Source: a virus. From it: DNA of 13,815 nt. Of this stretch, positions 1 to 5,726 are shown in pieces. The position numbers were made by a program, and so were the translations under genes. The notes under the pieces were generated by a model. The model had not been told where the DNA came from and did not search any database. It worked only from the letters and a program-made list of their open reading frames with translations. The stretch lies in the UHGV virus genome UHGV-0045964; one strand, written 5' to 3'. The stretch's first letter is position 1; every line of letters starts with the position of its first letter.

Positions 1-35
1 TAAAGGGTAATATATAACAGAAGGTTTATATAGTT

Positions 36-107
36 AGAAGCAAGGTTGTGCTTCTAAAGGAAGTGGCTTGAGGGAGCCACTTATATGTTGGGGAGGCAAC
101 GCCTCCC
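36..107 (-). terminator. Cluster of three perfect 7-bp hairpins just 3' of the porin stop; putative porin terminator region
   Basis: Inverted repeats agaagca/tgcttct (36-42/49-55), agtggct/agccact (62-68/75-81) and gggaggc/gcctccc (91-97/101-107), each with a 3-6 nt loop. Only the middle hairpin is followed by a U-rich tract on the minus strand, so the terminator assignment is tentative. Confidence 0.3.
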
Positions 108-132
108 GCAACATATCTTTTTCGTAATCAGA

Positions 133-1215
133 TTAGAACTGATACACCAGACCTACAGCGACGATGTCGTCGGTATCAATACCAGCTGTTTTGGTAAACT
201 TACTATCGTCAATTAAGTTGATTTTGTAATCAACAAAAGTGGACATGTTTTTATTAAAGTAGTAAGTAGCACCGACATCGACATACTTGACTAAGTCTCG
301 GTCACCATGAACACCAAGGTCTTTACCTTTTGACTGAAGGTAAGCAACAGATGGACGCAGACCGAAGTCAAACTGATATTGTGCTACTGCTTCAAAGTTT
401 TGTGCTTTGTTTGCAATATGGTTATTACCAAAAACGGTCATATTCTGAGTTTCAGAATATGTGGTAGCCAGATAGATATTGTTCGCATCATATTTCAGGC
501 CTGCAGCCCATACTTCCGCATTTTTGCCGGAGGCATTGAATTTGCTCTTACCATAGGCGACCTGACCGTCAGTGCGATCTGATTTAGCATAGGTTGCACC
601 CACGCCGAATCCTTCATACTCATAAGTAGCGGAGAAACCGAAACCATCACCATTGGCTTCAGTTACGTCAGTGCGGTCATTTTTACCCTGATACTGAGCA
701 GCAAAGTTCAGGCCATCGACCAGACCAAAGAAGTCGTTGTTACGATAAGTTGCAACACCAGTAGTGCGACCAGTCATGAACACATCTGTTTGGGTCCAGG
801 TATCACCACCGAATTCTGGCAGAACGTCAGTCCACGCACCGATGTCGTATGCTACACCGTAGTTACGGCCGTAATCGATTGAGCCGTAATCACCAAATTT
901 CAGGCCTGCAAATGCAAGACGGGTTTTGTCTTTGGAAGAACCTTGAGATTCAGCGCGGTTGCCTTTGAATTCATATTCCCACTGACCGAAACCAGTCAGT
1001 TGATCGTTGATTTGGGTTTCACCTTTGAAGCCAAGACGGGCATAAGTAGTATCACCATCATCTGCATCATTAGAGGAGAAGTAGTGCTTAGCATTAACTT
1101 TCCCGTACAGATCCAGCTTGTTACTGTCTTTATTATAAATTTCAGCTGCCTGAGCAGACATCGCCATCAGTACTGATGCAGCTACAGCAGAAATTGCCAC
1201 TGTTAATTTTTTCAT
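133..1215 (-). CDS. nmpC: Prophage-borne OmpC/OmpF-family general porin (NmpC/Lc-like), intact 360-aa precursor
   Basis: Minus-strand ORF. Start taken at ATG 1215..1213 (signal peptide [23 protein letters not shown], then AEIYNKD) rather than the upstream in-frame Met of the ORF track. Porin hallmarks include the C-terminal ...VGLVYQF; stop TAA at 135..133. Position on the opposite strand directly upstream of the lysis genes matches the nmpC/lc moron slot of DLP12/PA-2-type phages. Confidence 0.9.
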
Positions 1216-1642
1216 CGTGAGCCCTTTTTTTGAACTATTATTAAAAAATGATGTCACTGCGCGATAAATATTCATCTAATCAATGTGATTATTTCAAGAT
1301 GTAAGTTTTGGTTTCTCGTTTGATTTGTGAAGTAGATCTCTATTTTTATCTGAACTTTTTTCTATCGAATCCTATTCATGGCTCTTGGCTGAATAAAAAT
1401 AAATCTATTAGCCAATTTATATTAATGGCTGTTATTTATAAGTGCTCTATAATTTGAAGGTTCAATTTAAATCGGCTAAAAATAACGCTGGAAATTATTT
1501 GTTGGTTATTTGTTGAGATTTGCTTATGTATTTGTAGTGGTGTTTTCAATACTCGGTAGCATTCTCGCAAATATCATTTAGTGGTTTACGTACGTAAAAA
1601 ATTGGTTATGCTGTTAAGAGTGGTTACTTCGTCACACAGCTT

Positions 1643-1672
1643 AAACCCGCCGTCGAGCGGGTTTTTCCATTT
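1643..1672 (+). terminator. Intrinsic terminator upstream of the lysis cassette (tR'-like)
   Basis: Hairpin aaacccgc / loop cgtcga / gcgggttt followed by TTTTTCCATTTTTT, about 120 bp upstream of the holin start. Confidence 0.5.
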
Positions 1673-1787
1673 TTTGAGTCTCGATATTAGCTGATAACCC
1701 AATACCTGAGTTATTCACTGACTCCGAGTCTGTTACGTTTCGTAGTATTCCCTCAATTTACACCCGCTTTGTCTGCGAGGTGGGGTT

Positions 1788-2003
1788 ATGAAATCCATGG
1801 ATAAGTTAACAACGGGTGTCGCCTATGGCACCTCAGCAGGTAGTGCCGGGTACTGGTTTTTACAGCTGCTAGATAAAGTCACGCCCTCACAGTGGGCGGC
1901 AATTGGAGTGCTGGGTAGCCTGGTATTTGGCCTGCTGACGTACCTGACAAACCTTTATTTCAAGATTAAAGAAGATAAGCGCAAGGCTGCGAGAGGTGAA
2001 TAA
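1788..2003 (+). CDS. essD: Class II holin, phage 21 S21-type pinholin (71 aa) with dual-start motif
   Basis: Translation [26 protein letters not shown]...[15 protein letters not shown] matches the S21 pinholin family. Met1-Lys2-Ser3-Met4 gives the antiholin/holin dual start; two TMDs and a basic C-terminus; RBS gaggtgggg upstream; stop overlaps the endolysin start (TAATG). Confidence 0.9.
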
Positions 2004-2500
2004 TGCCTCCATCATTACGAAAAGCCGTTGCTGCTGCTATTGGTGGCGGAGCAATTGCTATAGCATCAGTGTTAATTACTGGCCCAAGTGGTAACGATGG
2101 TCTGGAAGGTGTCAGCTACATACCATACAAAGATATTGTTGGTGTATGGACTGTATGTCACGGGCATACAGGAAAAGACATCATGCTCGGTAAAACGTAT
2201 ACCAAAGCAGAATGCAAAGCACTCTTGAATAAAGACCTTGCCACTGTCGCCAGACAAATTAACCCGTACATCAAAGTCGATATACCGGAAACAACGCGCG
2301 GCGCTCTTTACTCATTCGTTTACAACGTGGGTGCTGGCAATTTCAGAACATCGACGCTTCTTCGCAAAATAAACCAGGGCGATATCAAAGGCGCATGTGA
2401 TCAGCTACGTCGCTGGACATATGCTGGCGGTAAGCAATGGAAAGGTCTCATGACTCGTCGTGAGATTGAGCGTGAAATCTGTTTGTGGGGTCAGCAATGA
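2003..2500 (+). CDS. rrrD: SAR (signal-anchor-release) endolysin, phage 21 R21-type lysozyme (165 aa)
   Basis: N-terminal Gly/Ala-rich weakly hydrophobic SAR segment ([20 protein letters not shown]) followed by a T4-lysozyme-like catalytic region (E...D...T in [16 protein letters not shown]); near-identical to R21 by recognition. Stop TGA overlaps the Rz start (ATGA). Confidence 0.9.
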
Positions 2501-2958
2501 ACAGAGTAACCGCGATTATCTCCGCTCTGGTTATCTGCATCATCGTCTGCCTGTCATGGGCTGTTAATCATTACCGTGATAACGCCATTACCTACAAAGC
2601 CCAGCGCGACAAAAATGCCAGAGAACTGAAGCTGGCGAACGCGGCAATTACTGACATGCAGATGCGTCAGCGTGATGTTGCTGCGCTCGATGCAAAATAC
2701 ACGAAGGAGTTAGCTGATGCGAAAGCTGAAAATGATGCTCTGCGTGATGATGTTGCCGCTGGTCGTCGTCGGTTGCACATCAAAGCAGTCTGTCAGTCAG
2801 TGCGTGAAGCCACCACCGCCTCCGGCGTGGATAATGCAGCCTCCCCCCGACTGGCAGACACCGCTGAACGGGATTATTTCACCCTCAGAGAGAGGCTGAT
2901 CACTATGCAAAAACAACTGGAAGGAACCCAGAAGTATATTAATGAGCAGTGCAGATAG
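2497..2958 (+). CDS. Rz: Rz i-spanin (inner-membrane spanin subunit), lambda-type, 153 aa
   Basis: [29 protein letters not shown]... with N-terminal TMD and coiled-coil periplasmic domain; essentially lambda Rz by recognition. ATG 2497 preferred over GTG 2485 of the ORF track. Confidence 0.9.
2717..2899 (+). CDS. Rz1: Rz1 o-spanin (outer-membrane lipoprotein), nested in the +1 frame inside Rz
   Basis: 60-aa ORF wholly inside Rz in another frame; perfect SD aaggag 7 nt upstream; lipobox LVVVG|C; proline-rich mature part ([15 protein letters not shown]) as in lambda Rz1. Confidence 0.88.
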
Positions 2959-2989
2959 AGCTGCCCATATCGATGGGCAACTCATGCAA

Positions 2990-3283
2990 TTATTGTGAGC
3001 AATACACACGCGCTTCCAGCGGAGTATAAATGCCTAAAGTAATAAAACCGAGAAATCCATTTACGAATGTTTGCTGGGTTTCTGTTTTAACAACATTTTC
3101 TGCGCCGCCACAAATTTTGGCTGCATCAACAGTTTTCTCCTGTCCAATTCCCGAAACGAAGAAATGATGGGTGATGGTTTCCTTTGGTGTTACTGCTGTC
3201 GGTTTGTTTCCAACAGTAAACGTCTGTTGAGCACATCCTGTAATAAGCATTGCCAGAGCGGCAGAAAACAACATTTTTTTCAT
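2990..3283 (-). CDS. bor: Bor lipoprotein (serum-resistance / Iss-family outer-membrane lipoprotein), 97 aa
   Basis: Start taken at MKKMLFSAALAMLITG|CAQQ (lipobox) = ATG 3283..3281, not the longer ORF-track start at 3331; C-terminus ...EARVYCSQ; near-identical to lambda Bor by recognition. Confidence 0.9.
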   Translation of the reverse strand: MKKMLFSAALAMLITGCAQQTFTVGNKPTAVTPKETITHHFFVSGIGQEKTVDAAKICGGAENVVKTETQQTFVNGFLGFITLGIYTPLEARVYCSQ

Positions 3284-3464
3284 CTTATTATCCTGCATTG
3301 TTAAAAACGGCAGAATCCTATGTGACAACAATTAAACGATAGTTAAATGGATTGATGAAAATTAAAACTATATAGGTGGATGCTCAGCCTATTGGAGGAG
3401 GGGGGGGCACTCAGAATCCTGTGGAATGAAATAAACCGCTCTATCTGTCCATTACCCTTTTAGC

Positions 3465-3574
3465 TGCGCTGTATCGTCGCCGTATTCCCGCATTAACCAT
3501 GACCGTAGCCCGACGGGGAATTCCTTCTGCGTGAGTGTGCGGGAATAATCAAAAACGATGCACACCGGGTTTTA
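3465..3574. repeat. Conserved non-coding element, copy 1 (between bor and the ylcI-like gene); diverged copy at 5123..5233
   Basis: About 110 bp alignable to 5123..5233 with scattered substitutions; no ORF in either copy; contains a 10-bp inverted repeat tattcccgca (3483-3492) / tgcgggaata (3538-3547). Weaker similarity continues to about 3644. Confidence 0.7.
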
Positions 3575-3644
3575 CTGTGCTGACAGACGCAGGGTTACCC
3601 TCATAGTCGCTTTTCCGGTGCGATGGTGGAAGAAACCGGGATGT

Positions 3645-3839
3645 TCATCCATCATCACTTTGGATTGATGTATATGCTCTCTTTTCTGACGTTAGTCTCC
3701 GACGGCAGGCTTCAATGACCCAGGCTGAGAAATTCCCGGACCCTTTTTGCTCAAGAGCGATGTTAATTTGTTCAATCATTTGGTTAGGAAAGCGGATGTT
3801 GCGGGTTGTTGTTCTGCGGGTTCTGTTCTTTGTTGACAT
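3645..3839 (-). CDS. ylcI: Small YlcI-like (DUF3950) protein, 64 aa, possible ribbon-helix-helix DNA binder
   Basis: MSTKNRTRRTTTRNIRFPNQMIEQINIALEQKGSGNFSAWVIEACRRRL...; ATG at 3839..3837, stop at 3647..3645. Position just upstream of cos/Nu1 matches ylcI-nohD in DLP12. The RHH assignment is inferred from the basic N-terminus and Arc/MetJ-like pattern. Confidence 0.7.
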   Translation of the reverse strand: MSTKNRTRRTTTRNIRFPNQMIEQINIALEQKGSGNFSAWVIEACRRRLTSEKRAYTSIQSDDG

Positions 3840-4002
3840 GAGGTTGCCCCGTATTCAGTGTCGCTGATTTGTATTGTCTGAAGTTGTTTTTACGTTAAGT
3901 TGATGCAGATCAATTAATACGATACCTGCGTCATAATTGATTATTTGACGTGGTTTGATGGCGTAGATGCACGTTGTGACATGTAGATGATAATTATTAT
4001 CA

Positions 4003-4177
4003 TTTTGCGGGTCCTTTCCGGCGATCCGACAGGTTACGGGGCGGCGACCTCGCGGGTTTTCGCTATTTATGAAAATTTTCCGGCTTAAGGCGTTTCCGTT
4101 CTTCTTCGCCGTAACTTCATGTTTTTATTTAAAACACCCCCTAAAAAGAAAGGAAACGACAGGTGCTGAAAACGGGC
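4003..4177 (+). other. cos: cos site copy 1 (cosQ-proximal region, cosN, cosB sites R3-I1-R2), cut off by the scaffold gap before R1
   Basis: Lambda junction ...ccgacaggttacg|gggcggcgacct... with the 12-nt cohesive-end sequence GGGCGGCGACCT at 4039..4050; gpNu1 R-site motifs cgtttccgttct (R3) and inverted gaaaggaaacgacag (R2). Sequence stops at the N run 4178..4187. Confidence 0.85.
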
Positions 4178-4259
4178 NNNNNNNNNNTTAGTGCTGGCGA
4201 GCCTCGGTGGGCTGGTTTCCTGTGCGGCAAAGGTTCATTTCAAAGAGTAGGTACACGCT

Positions 4260-4757
4260 ATGAAATCATTAACCCTCTTCAATCAACCAATTCGTATCGG
4301 TGAAGATGGCATGATCTGCCTCACTGATATGTGGAAAGCCAGTGGTAAAAGTGAATCTGAATCGCCTTACCACTACCTGCGAAACAAGCAGACCAAAGAG
4401 TTCTTAGCCGAGCTGGAGAAAAACCACGAATCTGTGGTTTTTACTGAGCGCGGTGTACACGGTGGAACATATGGCGGGAAGTTTGTTGCTTACGATTATG
4501 CGGCTTGGTTAAACCCCGGGTTCAAGTACGCGGCCTATAAAGTCCTCGATGACTACTTCACCGGAGAACTTCAGCATCGCAACAGCTTAAGTGCGCAGCT
4601 CAACATGAAATGTCATGAGTTTGACCAGAAGAAAGACATGGCGAGCTTCTGCGGACAAGGGCTGGCAGCATGGCGCTATACGAAGCCAGTGTTGGTCGCT
4701 GAGATTAACTCCCTGGCTAACCAGCTGCAGATTACGATCCCCGGGCTTCCGGGATGA
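4260..4757 (+). CDS. KilA-N domain protein (165 aa), function unknown
   Basis: KilA-N/APSES-like signature ...VFTERGVHGGTYGGKFVAYDYAAWLNPGFKYAAYKVLDDYF...; no fused C-terminal Bro/ANT domain; stop overlaps the next ORF start (ATGA at 4754-4757). Confidence 0.75.
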   Translation: MKSLTLFNQPIRIGEDGMICLTDMWKASGKSESESPYHYLRNKQTKEFLAELEKNHESVVFTERGVHGGTYGGKFVAYDYAAWLNPGFKYAAYKVLDDYFTGELQHRNSLSAQLNMKCHEFDQKKDMASFCGQGLAAWRYTKPVLVAEINSLANQLQITIPGLPG

Positions 4758-5011
4758 GTGATCGTGTTATTGAATGCGCCTCCAGAGCGGGGCGCGACTT
4801 CTCAGAGTTCATGAAAGGCGAGAAGGGCATGATGGAAGCATTGGCCTCGGTGGATGAGTTTGGCGAGCAGCTGCGCCTCAACGGCTGTGTCAATCATCAC
4901 TTTGTTAGCTACATGATGCGGAACTCGATCATGCAGGCATTCATGGACATGGCAAAAGCCGAGAGGAAAGAAGAGCGCCGGCGTAAGCGAGCGGAAGCAA
5001 AAGCGAAGTAG
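4754..5011 (+). CDS. Hypothetical 85-aa protein, Met-rich with a strongly basic C-terminal tail, translationally coupled to the KilA-N gene
   Basis: ORF MSDRVIECASRAGRDFSEFMKGEKGMMEALASVDEFGEQLRLNGCVNHHFVSYMMRNSIMQAFMDMAKAERKEERRRKRAEAKAK; ATGA overlap with the upstream gene; a weak hairpin plus T-run follows (gggata...tatccc tttt, 5065-5090). Not recognised as any known family. Confidence 0.55.
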   Translation: MSDRVIECASRAGRDFSEFMKGEKGMMEALASVDEFGEQLRLNGCVNHHFVSYMMRNSIMQAFMDMAKAERKEERRRKRAEAKAK

Positions 5012-5122
5012 CCATTACAAAGCCTATCTACGGGTGGGCTTTGATAATGGCTTATACCCTACACGGGATAACTTAACTGATATCCCTTTTAAAGGATAAA
5101 GGTATTCAAGCCTGACACATCA

Positions 5123-5233
5123 TGCGCTGTATCGTCGCCGTATTCCCGTATTAACAGAGACCATAGCCCGACGGGGAACTCTTTCTGCGCGAGTGTGCGG
5201 GAATAATCAAAAACGATGCACACCGGGTTTTTA
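5123..5233. repeat. Conserved non-coding element, copy 2 (upstream of the second cos)
   Basis: Diverged copy of 3465..3574; inverted repeat retained as tattcccgta (5141-5150) / tgcgggaata (5196-5205), where the single arm change turns a G-C pair into a G-U wobble. Confidence 0.7.
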
Positions 5234-5332
5234 CCGCGTTTATGGTTCGCGGGTTTGTCCCTCATGCTCGCCAGTCCTGTGCGAGGGTGGAAGAAACCGG
5301 ATATTAATGCAAGTGATAAACATTCTCATTTT

Positions 5333-5533
5333 CTCGGGTCCTTTCCGGCGATCTGACAGGCTACGGGGCGGCGACCTCGCGGTTTTTCGCTATTTATGAA
5401 AATTTTCCGGTTTAAGGCGTTTCCGTTCTTCTTCGTCGTAACTTAATGTTTTTATTTAAAATACCCCCTGAAAAGAAAGGAAACGACAGGTGCTGAAAAC
5501 GGGCTTTTTGGCCTCTGTCGTTTCCTTTCTCTG
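5333..5533 (+). other. cos: cos site copy 2, complete (cosN, cosB with R3, I1-like AT-rich region, R2, R1)
   Basis: ...ctgacaggctacg|gggcggcgacct...; cosN 12-mer at 5366..5377; R-site motifs cgtttccgttct (about 5418-5430), gaaaggaaacgacag (about 5476-5490, inverted) and ctgtcgtttcctttctctg (5515-5533); Nu1 start follows at 5555. Confidence 0.88.
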
Positions 5534-5554
5534 TTTTTGGCCGTGGAATGAACA

Positions 5555-5726
5555 ATGGAAGTCAACAAAAAGCAGCTGGCTGACATTTTCGGCGCGAGTA
5601 TCCGTACCATTCAGAACTGGCAGGAGCAGGGAATGCCCGTTCTGCGGGGTGGTGGTAAGGGTAATGAGGTGCTTTATGATTCTGCCGCCGTCATAAAATG
5701 GTATGCCGAAAGGGATGCTGAAATTG
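5555..5726 (+). CDS. nu1: Terminase small subunit gpNu1, N-terminal piece (fragment 1 of 3; runs into the N gap)
   Basis: MEVNKKQLADIFGASIRTIQNWQEQGMPVLRGGGKGNEVLYDSAAVIKWYAERDAEI, the winged-HTH cosB-binding domain of lambda Nu1; ATG at 5555 as in lambda. Confidence 0.85.

Follow-up and report, generated by a model that had tools for sequence, protein, structure and literature searches.

A mobile two-gene cassette at the 3′ end of lambdoid lysis clusters joins a KilA-N–ORF11CD3 gene to an overlapping gene for a small protein

Bro-network proteins, among whose domains ORF11CD3 is counted, are frequently regulators, and their resemblance to homing endonucleases has been pointed out (PMC10111431). 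Here we analyze two overlapping open reading frames (ORFs) of virus genome UHGV-0045964, ORF A for a KilA-N protein of this network and ORF B for its small partner, within a stretch of 13,815 nucleotides (nt) referred to as the window. The closest described counterpart is hkbK/hkbL of phage HK620, which is this very cassette and likewise occupies the slot after Rz: over residues 1–85, HkbL matches ORF B with 100% identity, and the sequence of HkbK, a KilA-N+ORF11CD3 protein of 165 amino acids (aa), departs from that of ORF A near the N terminus only. The same slot is occupied in HK97. There, HK97p61 is 96% identical to ORF B over residues 1–54 but differs in its frameshifted C terminus and total of 77 aa, and gp73 (HK97p60) is a KilA-N+P63C protein of 242 aa, in contrast to the KilA-N+ORF11CD3 arrangement of ORF A. 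With these genes deposited in HK97 and HK620 and annotated in thousands of genomes, and with the domain network described, the object itself is already known; one phage record names the ORF A gene 'KilA-N-ORF11CD3'.

BstA is an abortive-infection protein that is likewise prophage-encoded and carries an N-terminal KilA-N domain. It is about twice as long as ORF A, is encoded next to the repressor and is made in the lysogen, whereas ORF A sits behind terminators in a late operon. The Rha proteins of P22 and phi80, Shiga toxin (Stx) phages and HK639 are encoded at the same position 3′ of the lysis genes and behind the same terminator-plus-hairpin leader, and those of Stx, Pantoea and Klebsiella phages share with ORF A an ORF11CD3-type C terminus ending in ...QITIPG; a hybrid Rha/KilA-N+ORF11CD3 protein (P0133) also exists. 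Rha differs in its N-terminal domain, which is Phage_pRha instead of KilA-N, and most rha genes lack an 85-aa partner. In P22 and phi80, rha belongs to the late operon, and its product prevents the phage from growing once control by integration host factor (IHF) is lost (PMC4936722, citing Henthorn & Friedman 1995). Distant relatives of ORF B extend the comparison to two further systems. The operon that encodes P0179 resembles P22 immI-type antirepressor operons (Arc/Mnt–Ant), and P0190 lies beside an Arc/Arc/Bro-N cluster, but the window cassette has no Arc/Mnt repressors and carries terminators and an RNA hairpin instead. The link to T5orf172/MUG113 proteins, exemplified by PLE CapR, runs through P0190 and P0192, whose N termini are homologous to ORF B; the T5orf172 domain itself is entirely absent from ORF B. 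CapR is a T5orf172-type protein able to act as a repressor (bioRxiv 10.1101/2020.11.28.402263; PMC10111431).

We favor, with evenly balanced confidence, a composite reading in which ORF A and ORF B form a dispensable, late-expressed and tightly damped regulator pair of the Rha/antirepressor-like type. The identity and architecture of the pair are near certain, and the functional part of the reading is offered tentatively.

Domain architecture and conservation of ORF A and ORF B

ORF A is a two-domain protein of classic Bro-network architecture. Pfam KilA-N (PF04383) covers residues 9–101 (nt 4284–4562; model positions 8–106 of 107) at 57.6 bits against a cutoff of 23.8, and ORF11CD3 (PF10549) occupies the C-terminal third, matching residues 109–161 (nt 4584–4742) over its whole model (positions 1–54 of 54) at 50.5 bits against a cutoff of 25. 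The initial annotation had taken the KilA-N protein to be stand-alone, a view that the second domain contradicts. ORF A also matches PHROG 129 'transcriptional regulator' and PHROG 10441, and its residues 105–163 match the Rha-like PHROG 518. The latter match is confined to the C-terminal region, and Pfam gave no match to Phage_pRha (PF09669), which places ORF A outside the Rha family. In an AlphaFold2 (AF2) model with a predicted local distance difference test (pLDDT) score of 84.5, an N-terminal beta/alpha domain of KilA-N fold is followed by a helical hairpin (helices 86–130 and 132–156), which may be an oligomerization or interaction element. Foldseek comparison of this model with the PDB returned nothing at E < 0.1 (a match to the APSES domain of Mbp1 was weak, E 0.8), all PDB matches by sequence had E ≥ 0.27, and NCBIfam searches of ORF A and ORF B gave nothing meaningful.

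The TGA stop of ORF A overlaps the ATG start of ORF B in ATGA at 4754–4757. This overlap and the coordinates and plus-strand orientation of both ORFs (Table 1), as initially annotated, hold, and the translation bears out the described composition of ORF B, with 9 Met among its 85 residues, a C...C-x2-HH arrangement (C8, C45-x2-H48H49) and the tail KAERKEERRRKRAEAKAK. The protein had also been called basic, which is true of residues 67–85 (net +6), the C-terminal tail with its (AK)n repeat, whereas residues 1–66 are net acidic. ORF B matches PHROG 875, a family in the category of unknown function, from end to end (residues 1–85 on model positions 1–85 of 85; E 3.2e-54), and more weakly PHROG 4284, whose profile of 171 positions has a length like that of the T5orf172-fused relatives. 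There was no Pfam, NCBIfam or PDB match (PDB sequence search, E ≥ 0.27). The AF2 model (pLDDT 92.8) consists of three helices (residues 3–20, 26–42 and 48–84), for which Foldseek found nothing at E < 0.1 in the PDB or BFVD and thus no informative fold neighbor. The expectation that ORF B is unlike characterized structural or packaging proteins survived these searches.

The ORF B family has few members: among 1.8 billion cluster representatives, a profile search retrieved only 21 relatives, none of them characterized, and every relative with a named source comes from Enterobacterales. Near-invariant in the family are the N-terminal motif IECASRAGRDFSEF and the motif GC(V)NHHF. Among 29 close homologs, C8 and C45 do not vary, and conservation of H48/H49 is 90% or higher. 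In the distant relatives P0179, P0190 and P0192, however, position 8 is S, A or L, and in P0192 C45 is replaced by V and H48 by S. The C...C-x2-HH metal site proposed initially is thus constant in the close family only, and a zinc or metal site as a trait of the whole family was rejected on account of the ligands replaced in these three proteins.

ORF A and ORF B are genuine genes under strong purifying selection. For ORF A and its Klebsiella copy, the proportions of nonsynonymous and synonymous differences are 0.16 (pN) and 0.79 (pS), and the ratio of nonsynonymous to synonymous substitution rates (dN/dS) of ORF B against five relatives is 0.04–0.29, with synonymous sites near saturation. Tail-length alleles of 85, 87, 89, 91, 93 and 95 aa were observed among otherwise identical ORF B proteins (loci L010–L089), differing by AK units (...AEAKAK(AK)nVK); in the window the tail repeat lies at 4990–5008. 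This polymorphism suggests slippage in a short coding repeat.

Spread, neighbors and leader of the cassette

The cassette is a widespread, mobile and dispensable two-gene element that is tied to the 3′ end of the lysis cluster, not to cos. The ORF B gene occurs in 427 of 5426 complete Escherichia coli genomes (about 8%), an assembly collection has the exact protein in 17,895 indexed blocks, and a search of genome contigs returned only 6 loci. Its hosts include the Stx1/Stx2 phages 1717, 2851 and JLK-2012, PhiR49_1, HK620, HK97, HK022 and mEp phages, as well as Salmonella and Klebsiella phages. In ten dissimilar E. coli contexts the cassette always lies 3′ of Rz, ahead of five different packaging modules: lambda Nu1/A; HNH + Terminase_4 + TerL; Terminase_2 + Terminase_3; a 933W-like module with a P22-type portal; and HNH + Terminase_2 + TerL. 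HK620 is a P22-like phage by taxonomy and gene order, and we take it to be a headful (pac) packager. In Klebsiella phage vB_Kpn_RAH1, the overlapping pair and its leader are embedded in the tail region, with DUF6246 on one side and DUF2335/tape measure on the other. The five packaging modules and the RAH1 location together indicate that the cassette moves as a unit and that its proximity to cos is incidental. The pair had been described as lying next to cos; cosN does follow ORF B by 355 nt on the same contig piece of the window, and it is only the implied link that falls away.

The cassette can be considered dispensable because frameshifted copies and partner-less versions exist and because it is absent from lambda. 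In phage SPN3UB, the KilA-N gene has no ORF B partner. The slot of the cassette is filled by bor in lambda and also in another part of the window, which carries bor and DUF3950 there (piece 1, Table 1), and the initial view of the pair as accessory cargo, foreign to lambda, in a slot that elsewhere holds bor was confirmed. Decayed copies were noted in HK97 (HK97p61, L003:3904–4137) and, with a frameshifted or truncated KilA-N gene beside an intact small gene, in Leclercia (L005:3408–3975) and IMG/VR (L010:3506–3955).

Each ORF B homolog examined directly follows a Bro-network gene. For most of them this 5′ gene encodes KilA-N+ORF11CD3 and overlaps by 4 nt; in HK97, Scandinavium, Raoultella and Trabulsiella it encodes KilA-N+P63C and is separated by a gap of 2 nt. 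P0179 (86 aa, 50% identical to ORF B) is the final gene of an Arc/Arc–P22_AR_N–Rha operon and overlaps its 5′ neighbor, a Phage_pRha gene, by 4 nt. In P0190 and P0192, an ORF-B-like stretch of about 60 N-terminal residues (hhalign probability 96% and 95%, respectively) is fused to T5orf172/MUG113, which is GIY-YIG-like. The gene for fused P0190 adjoins a KilA-N+P63C gene and the Arc/Arc/Bro-N cluster in a tail region, and that for fused P0192 is situated between lysis/hicAB genes and the small terminase gene. KilA-N+ORF11CD3 and Rha+ORF11CD3 genes also occur without ORF B (SPN3UB, Lys8385Vzw), and ORF B is kept beside frameshifted KilA-N genes. Because the partners vary and each gene can occur with no intact partner, ORF B looks like an optional accessory module of the Bro network rather than the obligate partner of any one domain. 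In two Stx-type prophages (L109:2136–2702 and L115:2136–2702), a gene for a 188-aa P22_AR_N+ORF11CD3 protein was seen between the lysozyme gene and Rz; these lysis clusters thus carry two Bro-network genes each, the other being the KilA-N cassette after Rz.

Approximately 190 nt 5′ of ORF A are conserved across contexts independently of the preceding gene, and this leader has three parts. The first is an intrinsic terminator hairpin with a U tract, variable in sequence and conserved in structure; the depositors of HK639 annotated the homologous hairpin as a terminator directly 5′ of rha. The second is either a GCGCAT-N4-5-GCGCAT box or, in the leader type of the window, a second terminator, ATGCGTACCGCAACGCAT followed by U6. 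The third is an imperfect hairpin of about 100 nt that pairs the SD-like GAGUAGGU within its base, SD denoting the Shine-Dalgarno sequence. We examined the full leader copy at L001:5900–6072 and other types at L092:2325–2506, L003:2990–3172, L090:2822–3006 and L095:2485–2657. The hairpin of the window type has a folding energy of −48.7 kcal/mol (z −3.45), and at its base ACCUGC pairs with GUAGGU, the SD region, 8–12 nt 5′ of the AUG.

Covariation analysis of 13 leader types indicated that this fold is maintained. Over 16 consensus pairs, 92.8% of the cells were paired, compared with 32–46% when the partner column was slid, and changes on both sides were found in 11 pairs, compared with 0–5 in the slid controls; all of 500 shuffles fell short of the observed values. 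In 9–10 of 12 leader types, the probability that the SD purines are unpaired is at most 0.1. The leader is common to Rha-family genes in HK639 and in Stx, Hafnia, Pantoea and Klebsiella phages. The cassette thus has what characterizes a late-operon Bro/Rha slot: it lies 3′ of Rz, is co-oriented with the late genes and has the shared terminator-plus-hairpin leader. Rfam gave no family at gathering score in the window, C4/isrK immunity RNAs included, and, with matches up to E 1 admitted, three leader types yielded only chance matches to eukaryotic microRNA or small nucleolar RNA families and to unrelated small-RNA or leader families. The shared leader, with its terminators and the ~100-nt hairpin that hides the ribosome-binding site (RBS), may be an undescribed cis-regulatory RNA motif.

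Another hairpin directly after the ORF B stop codon (Table 1) marks the 3′ boundary of the cassette. It recurs 3′ of the cassette in HK620 and HK97 and 3′ of the partner-less KilA-N gene in SPN3UB; in RAH1 a different hairpin occupies the 3′ end. With regard to morons in the sense used for HK97, genes that have a promoter and a terminator of their own and are expressed from the prophage, no sigma-70 consensus-like promoter was seen 5′ of the cassette, and the 3′ hairpin (z −6.5) has no U tract.

Proposed role and rival explanations

Based on these features, we propose a plausible role for the pair. Transcription would reach the cassette only by Q-antiterminated read-through of the terminators, late in lytic growth, and translation of ORF A, and of ORF B via coupling, would be held low by the RBS-occluding leader hairpin. 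ORF A would oligomerize and use KilA-N to bind DNA, and ORF B, with its helical core and Lys/Ala-rich tail, would act with ORF A or on nucleic acid. Together they would constitute a dose-sensitive regulator of the Rha/antirepressor-like type that works in trans, its targets being the host or else co-resident prophages or satellites, and would serve neither packaging nor lysogenic conversion. A bolder version, which we consider unlikely, is that the leader represents an undescribed cis-regulatory RNA class gating a whole set of interchangeable, dose-sensitive Bro-network genes (KilA-N, Rha) of phage late operons, with the pair serving as a late weapon or regulator against co-resident prophages or satellites and the small protein as its obligatory modulator.

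Several points weigh against the favored role. We infer DNA binding, oligomerization, interaction between ORF A and ORF B, and late-only expression, and Foldseek searches of the PDB and BFVD returned no recognizable nucleic-acid-binding fold for ORF B. The minimum-energy fold of the HK97/RAH1 leader type leaves the SD unpaired, and the plus-strand search between Rz and ORF A that found no sigma-70-like promoter in three contexts addressed consensus-like sites only. KilA-N proteins also serve in a defense system, that of BstA, which makes a role in conflict conceivable. No functional study of the pair (hkbK/hkbL, HK97 gp73, PHROG 875) was found in the literature searched. Finally, no strict IHF consensus WATCARNNNNTTR was present in 50 leader variants; the IHF dependence described for rha (PMC4936722) has no visible counterpart in the cassette leaders, and the Rha/IHF analogy may not carry over.

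An anti-defense or superinfection-exclusion/defense module, as suggested initially, which would neutralize host immunity or shield the lysogen from other phages, appears unlikely. It would suit a variable accessory slot with presence/absence polymorphism, the KilA-N domain is found in the abortive-infection protein BstA, and the KilA-N region of ORF A has a weak, partial match to the PADLOC candidate PDC-S22 (E 1e-8, ~30 residues). However, neither ORF A nor ORF B has a full-length match to a PADLOC defense model (no BstA-type match for ORF A; best match of ORF B, QatB at E 0.02), and the relatives of the pair cluster with antirepressor and Rha genes, not in defense islands. Expression in the lysogen, needed for defense or exclusion, and early expression, needed for anti-restriction, are both disfavored by the two terminators, the SD-sequestering hairpin 5′ of ORF A and the lack of a detected promoter. 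The same three features make bor-like expression from the lysogen unlikely, and they led us to reject a bor-like lysogenic-conversion gene as a candidate. Improbable, too, is a selfish cassette akin to free-standing homing-endonuclease genes, which would be maintained by transfer from one phage genome to another, whose low expression would limit harm and which would bring the phage no benefit. Hairpins that sequester the RBS, as this leader does, are typical of phage homing-endonuclease genes, and the cassette takes its own leader and 3′ hairpin to different positions beside unrelated modules. The fusion of distant ORF B relatives to the GIY-YIG-like T5orf172/MUG113 and the likeness of Bro-network proteins to homing endonucleases (PMC10111431) point the same way. 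Neither ORF A nor ORF B, however, contains a nuclease domain or T5orf172/MUG113 (Pfam, PHROG, NCBIfam), both proteins are under strong purifying selection across genera, and ordinary lambdoid mosaic recombination explains the spread equally well.

A toxin/antidote-like pair, in which the KilA-N protein would inhibit growth ('Kil') and the co-translated small protein would neutralize or tune it, has a comparably small chance of being correct. P1 KilA and the Rha proteins of P22 and phi80 are harmful when over-expressed. For Rha, such harm is also described in PMC4936722. Stop–start coupling is tight with three partner types (4-nt overlap with ORF11CD3 and Rha, 2-nt gap with P63C), and several layers damp expression, but the small gene is missing beside the KilA-N+ORF11CD3 and Rha+ORF11CD3 genes of SPN3UB and Lys8385Vzw, and it survives beside frameshifted KilA-N genes. 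The short distance from ORF B to cosN and the DNA-binding nature of the KilA-N domain could also be explained by a cos-specific packaging accessory, a DNA-binding pair aiding terminase at cos. This is highly improbable: identical copies of the pair are found ahead of pac-type and HK97-type terminases and of a 933W-like packaging module whose portal is of P22 type, the RAH1 pair is surrounded by tail genes, and lambda has no copy, and a cos-binding packaging factor is effectively refuted by this distribution. Apart from the stand-alone reading and the implied link to cos, the initial description of the pair was largely accurate.

The surrounding scaffold and the place of the pair among phage genes

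The window is a scaffold with 13 runs of exactly 10 N, in which neighboring pieces partly duplicate one another; contig joins across the N runs cannot be trusted as adjacency. One such run lies at 4178–4187, 72 nt 5′ of ORF A, and for this reason the sequence before 4188 belongs to a different contig or prophage, and the window lacks part of the cassette leader. Pieces 1 and 2, which come from two lambdoid prophages, fill one and the same slot between the lysis genes and cos in alternative ways. The overlapping or duplicated segments of the window derive from at least two similar lambdoid prophages. An unbroken, 100% identical copy of piece 2 is present in E. coli MS 196-1 (locus L001), in the order holin, lysozyme, Rz-like 'lysis protein', WP_000839225, WP_001283921, a small minus-strand ORF, Nu1, A, W and portal; in this locus the terminase genes Nu1 and A come after cosN.

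Table 1 Features of the window discussed in the text
Feature	Position	Strand	Description and basis
Piece 1	1–4177		Porin, S, R, Rz/Rz1, bor (minus strand), DUF3950 (minus strand), then cosN at 4039–4050
Porin gene	133–1275	−	380 aa, OmpC/OmpD-like; 5′ of the holin gene, opposite strand to the late genes
Piece 2	4188–5726		ORF A, ORF B, 58-aa minus-strand ORF, second cosN, start of nu1
Leader, 3′ half	4188–4259	+	3′ arm of the ~100-nt hairpin; 5′ half lost to the N run at 4178–4187
SD-like GAGUAGGU	4245–4252		Paired within the base of the leader hairpin
ORF A	4260–4757	+	165 aa; identical to WP_000839225; PHROG, Pfam and RefSeq annotation
ORF B	4754–5011	+	85 aa; identical to WP_001283921 and HK620 HkbL
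3′ hairpin	5010–5052	+	−28.5 kcal/mol, z −6.46; right after the ORF B stop; no U tract
58-aa ORF	5089–5265	−	WP_001205134, hypothetical; between cassette and cos
cosN GGGCGGCGACCT	5366–5377	+	By sequence; lambda-type packaging module; neighbor, outside the cassette

By tblastn, sequences related to the 58-aa ORF occur, mostly unannotated, in 417 phage records, with 933W, VT2-Sakai and lambda itself among them, and searches of Pfam and PHROG gave no match; the ORF may be a gene, or else a DNA element conserved near cos. The porin gene is a classic lambdoid cargo gene, and in PhiR49_1 the corresponding 'OmpD' gene sits between Q and the holin gene.

Bro-network genes (KilA-N, Rha, Ant, ORF11CD3, P63C and T5orf172) are among the commonest uncharacterized genes of temperate phages, Shiga-toxin phages included, and nearly none of them has a known job. 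The locus adds no new kind of system to this network; it is a known object of uncharacterized function. What the analysis contributes is the view of PHROG 875 as a Bro-network module in its own right, always found either next to a gene for KilA-N or Rha or in fusion with T5orf172, and the assignment of the cassette to the end of the lysis cluster rather than to cos. Its most interesting by-product is the covarying, RBS-occluding leader common to KilA-N and Rha genes, which is not in Rfam. That both kinds of gene share such a leader suggests that KilA-N and Rha proteins must be kept scarce, and the leader offers a simple experimental entry point.

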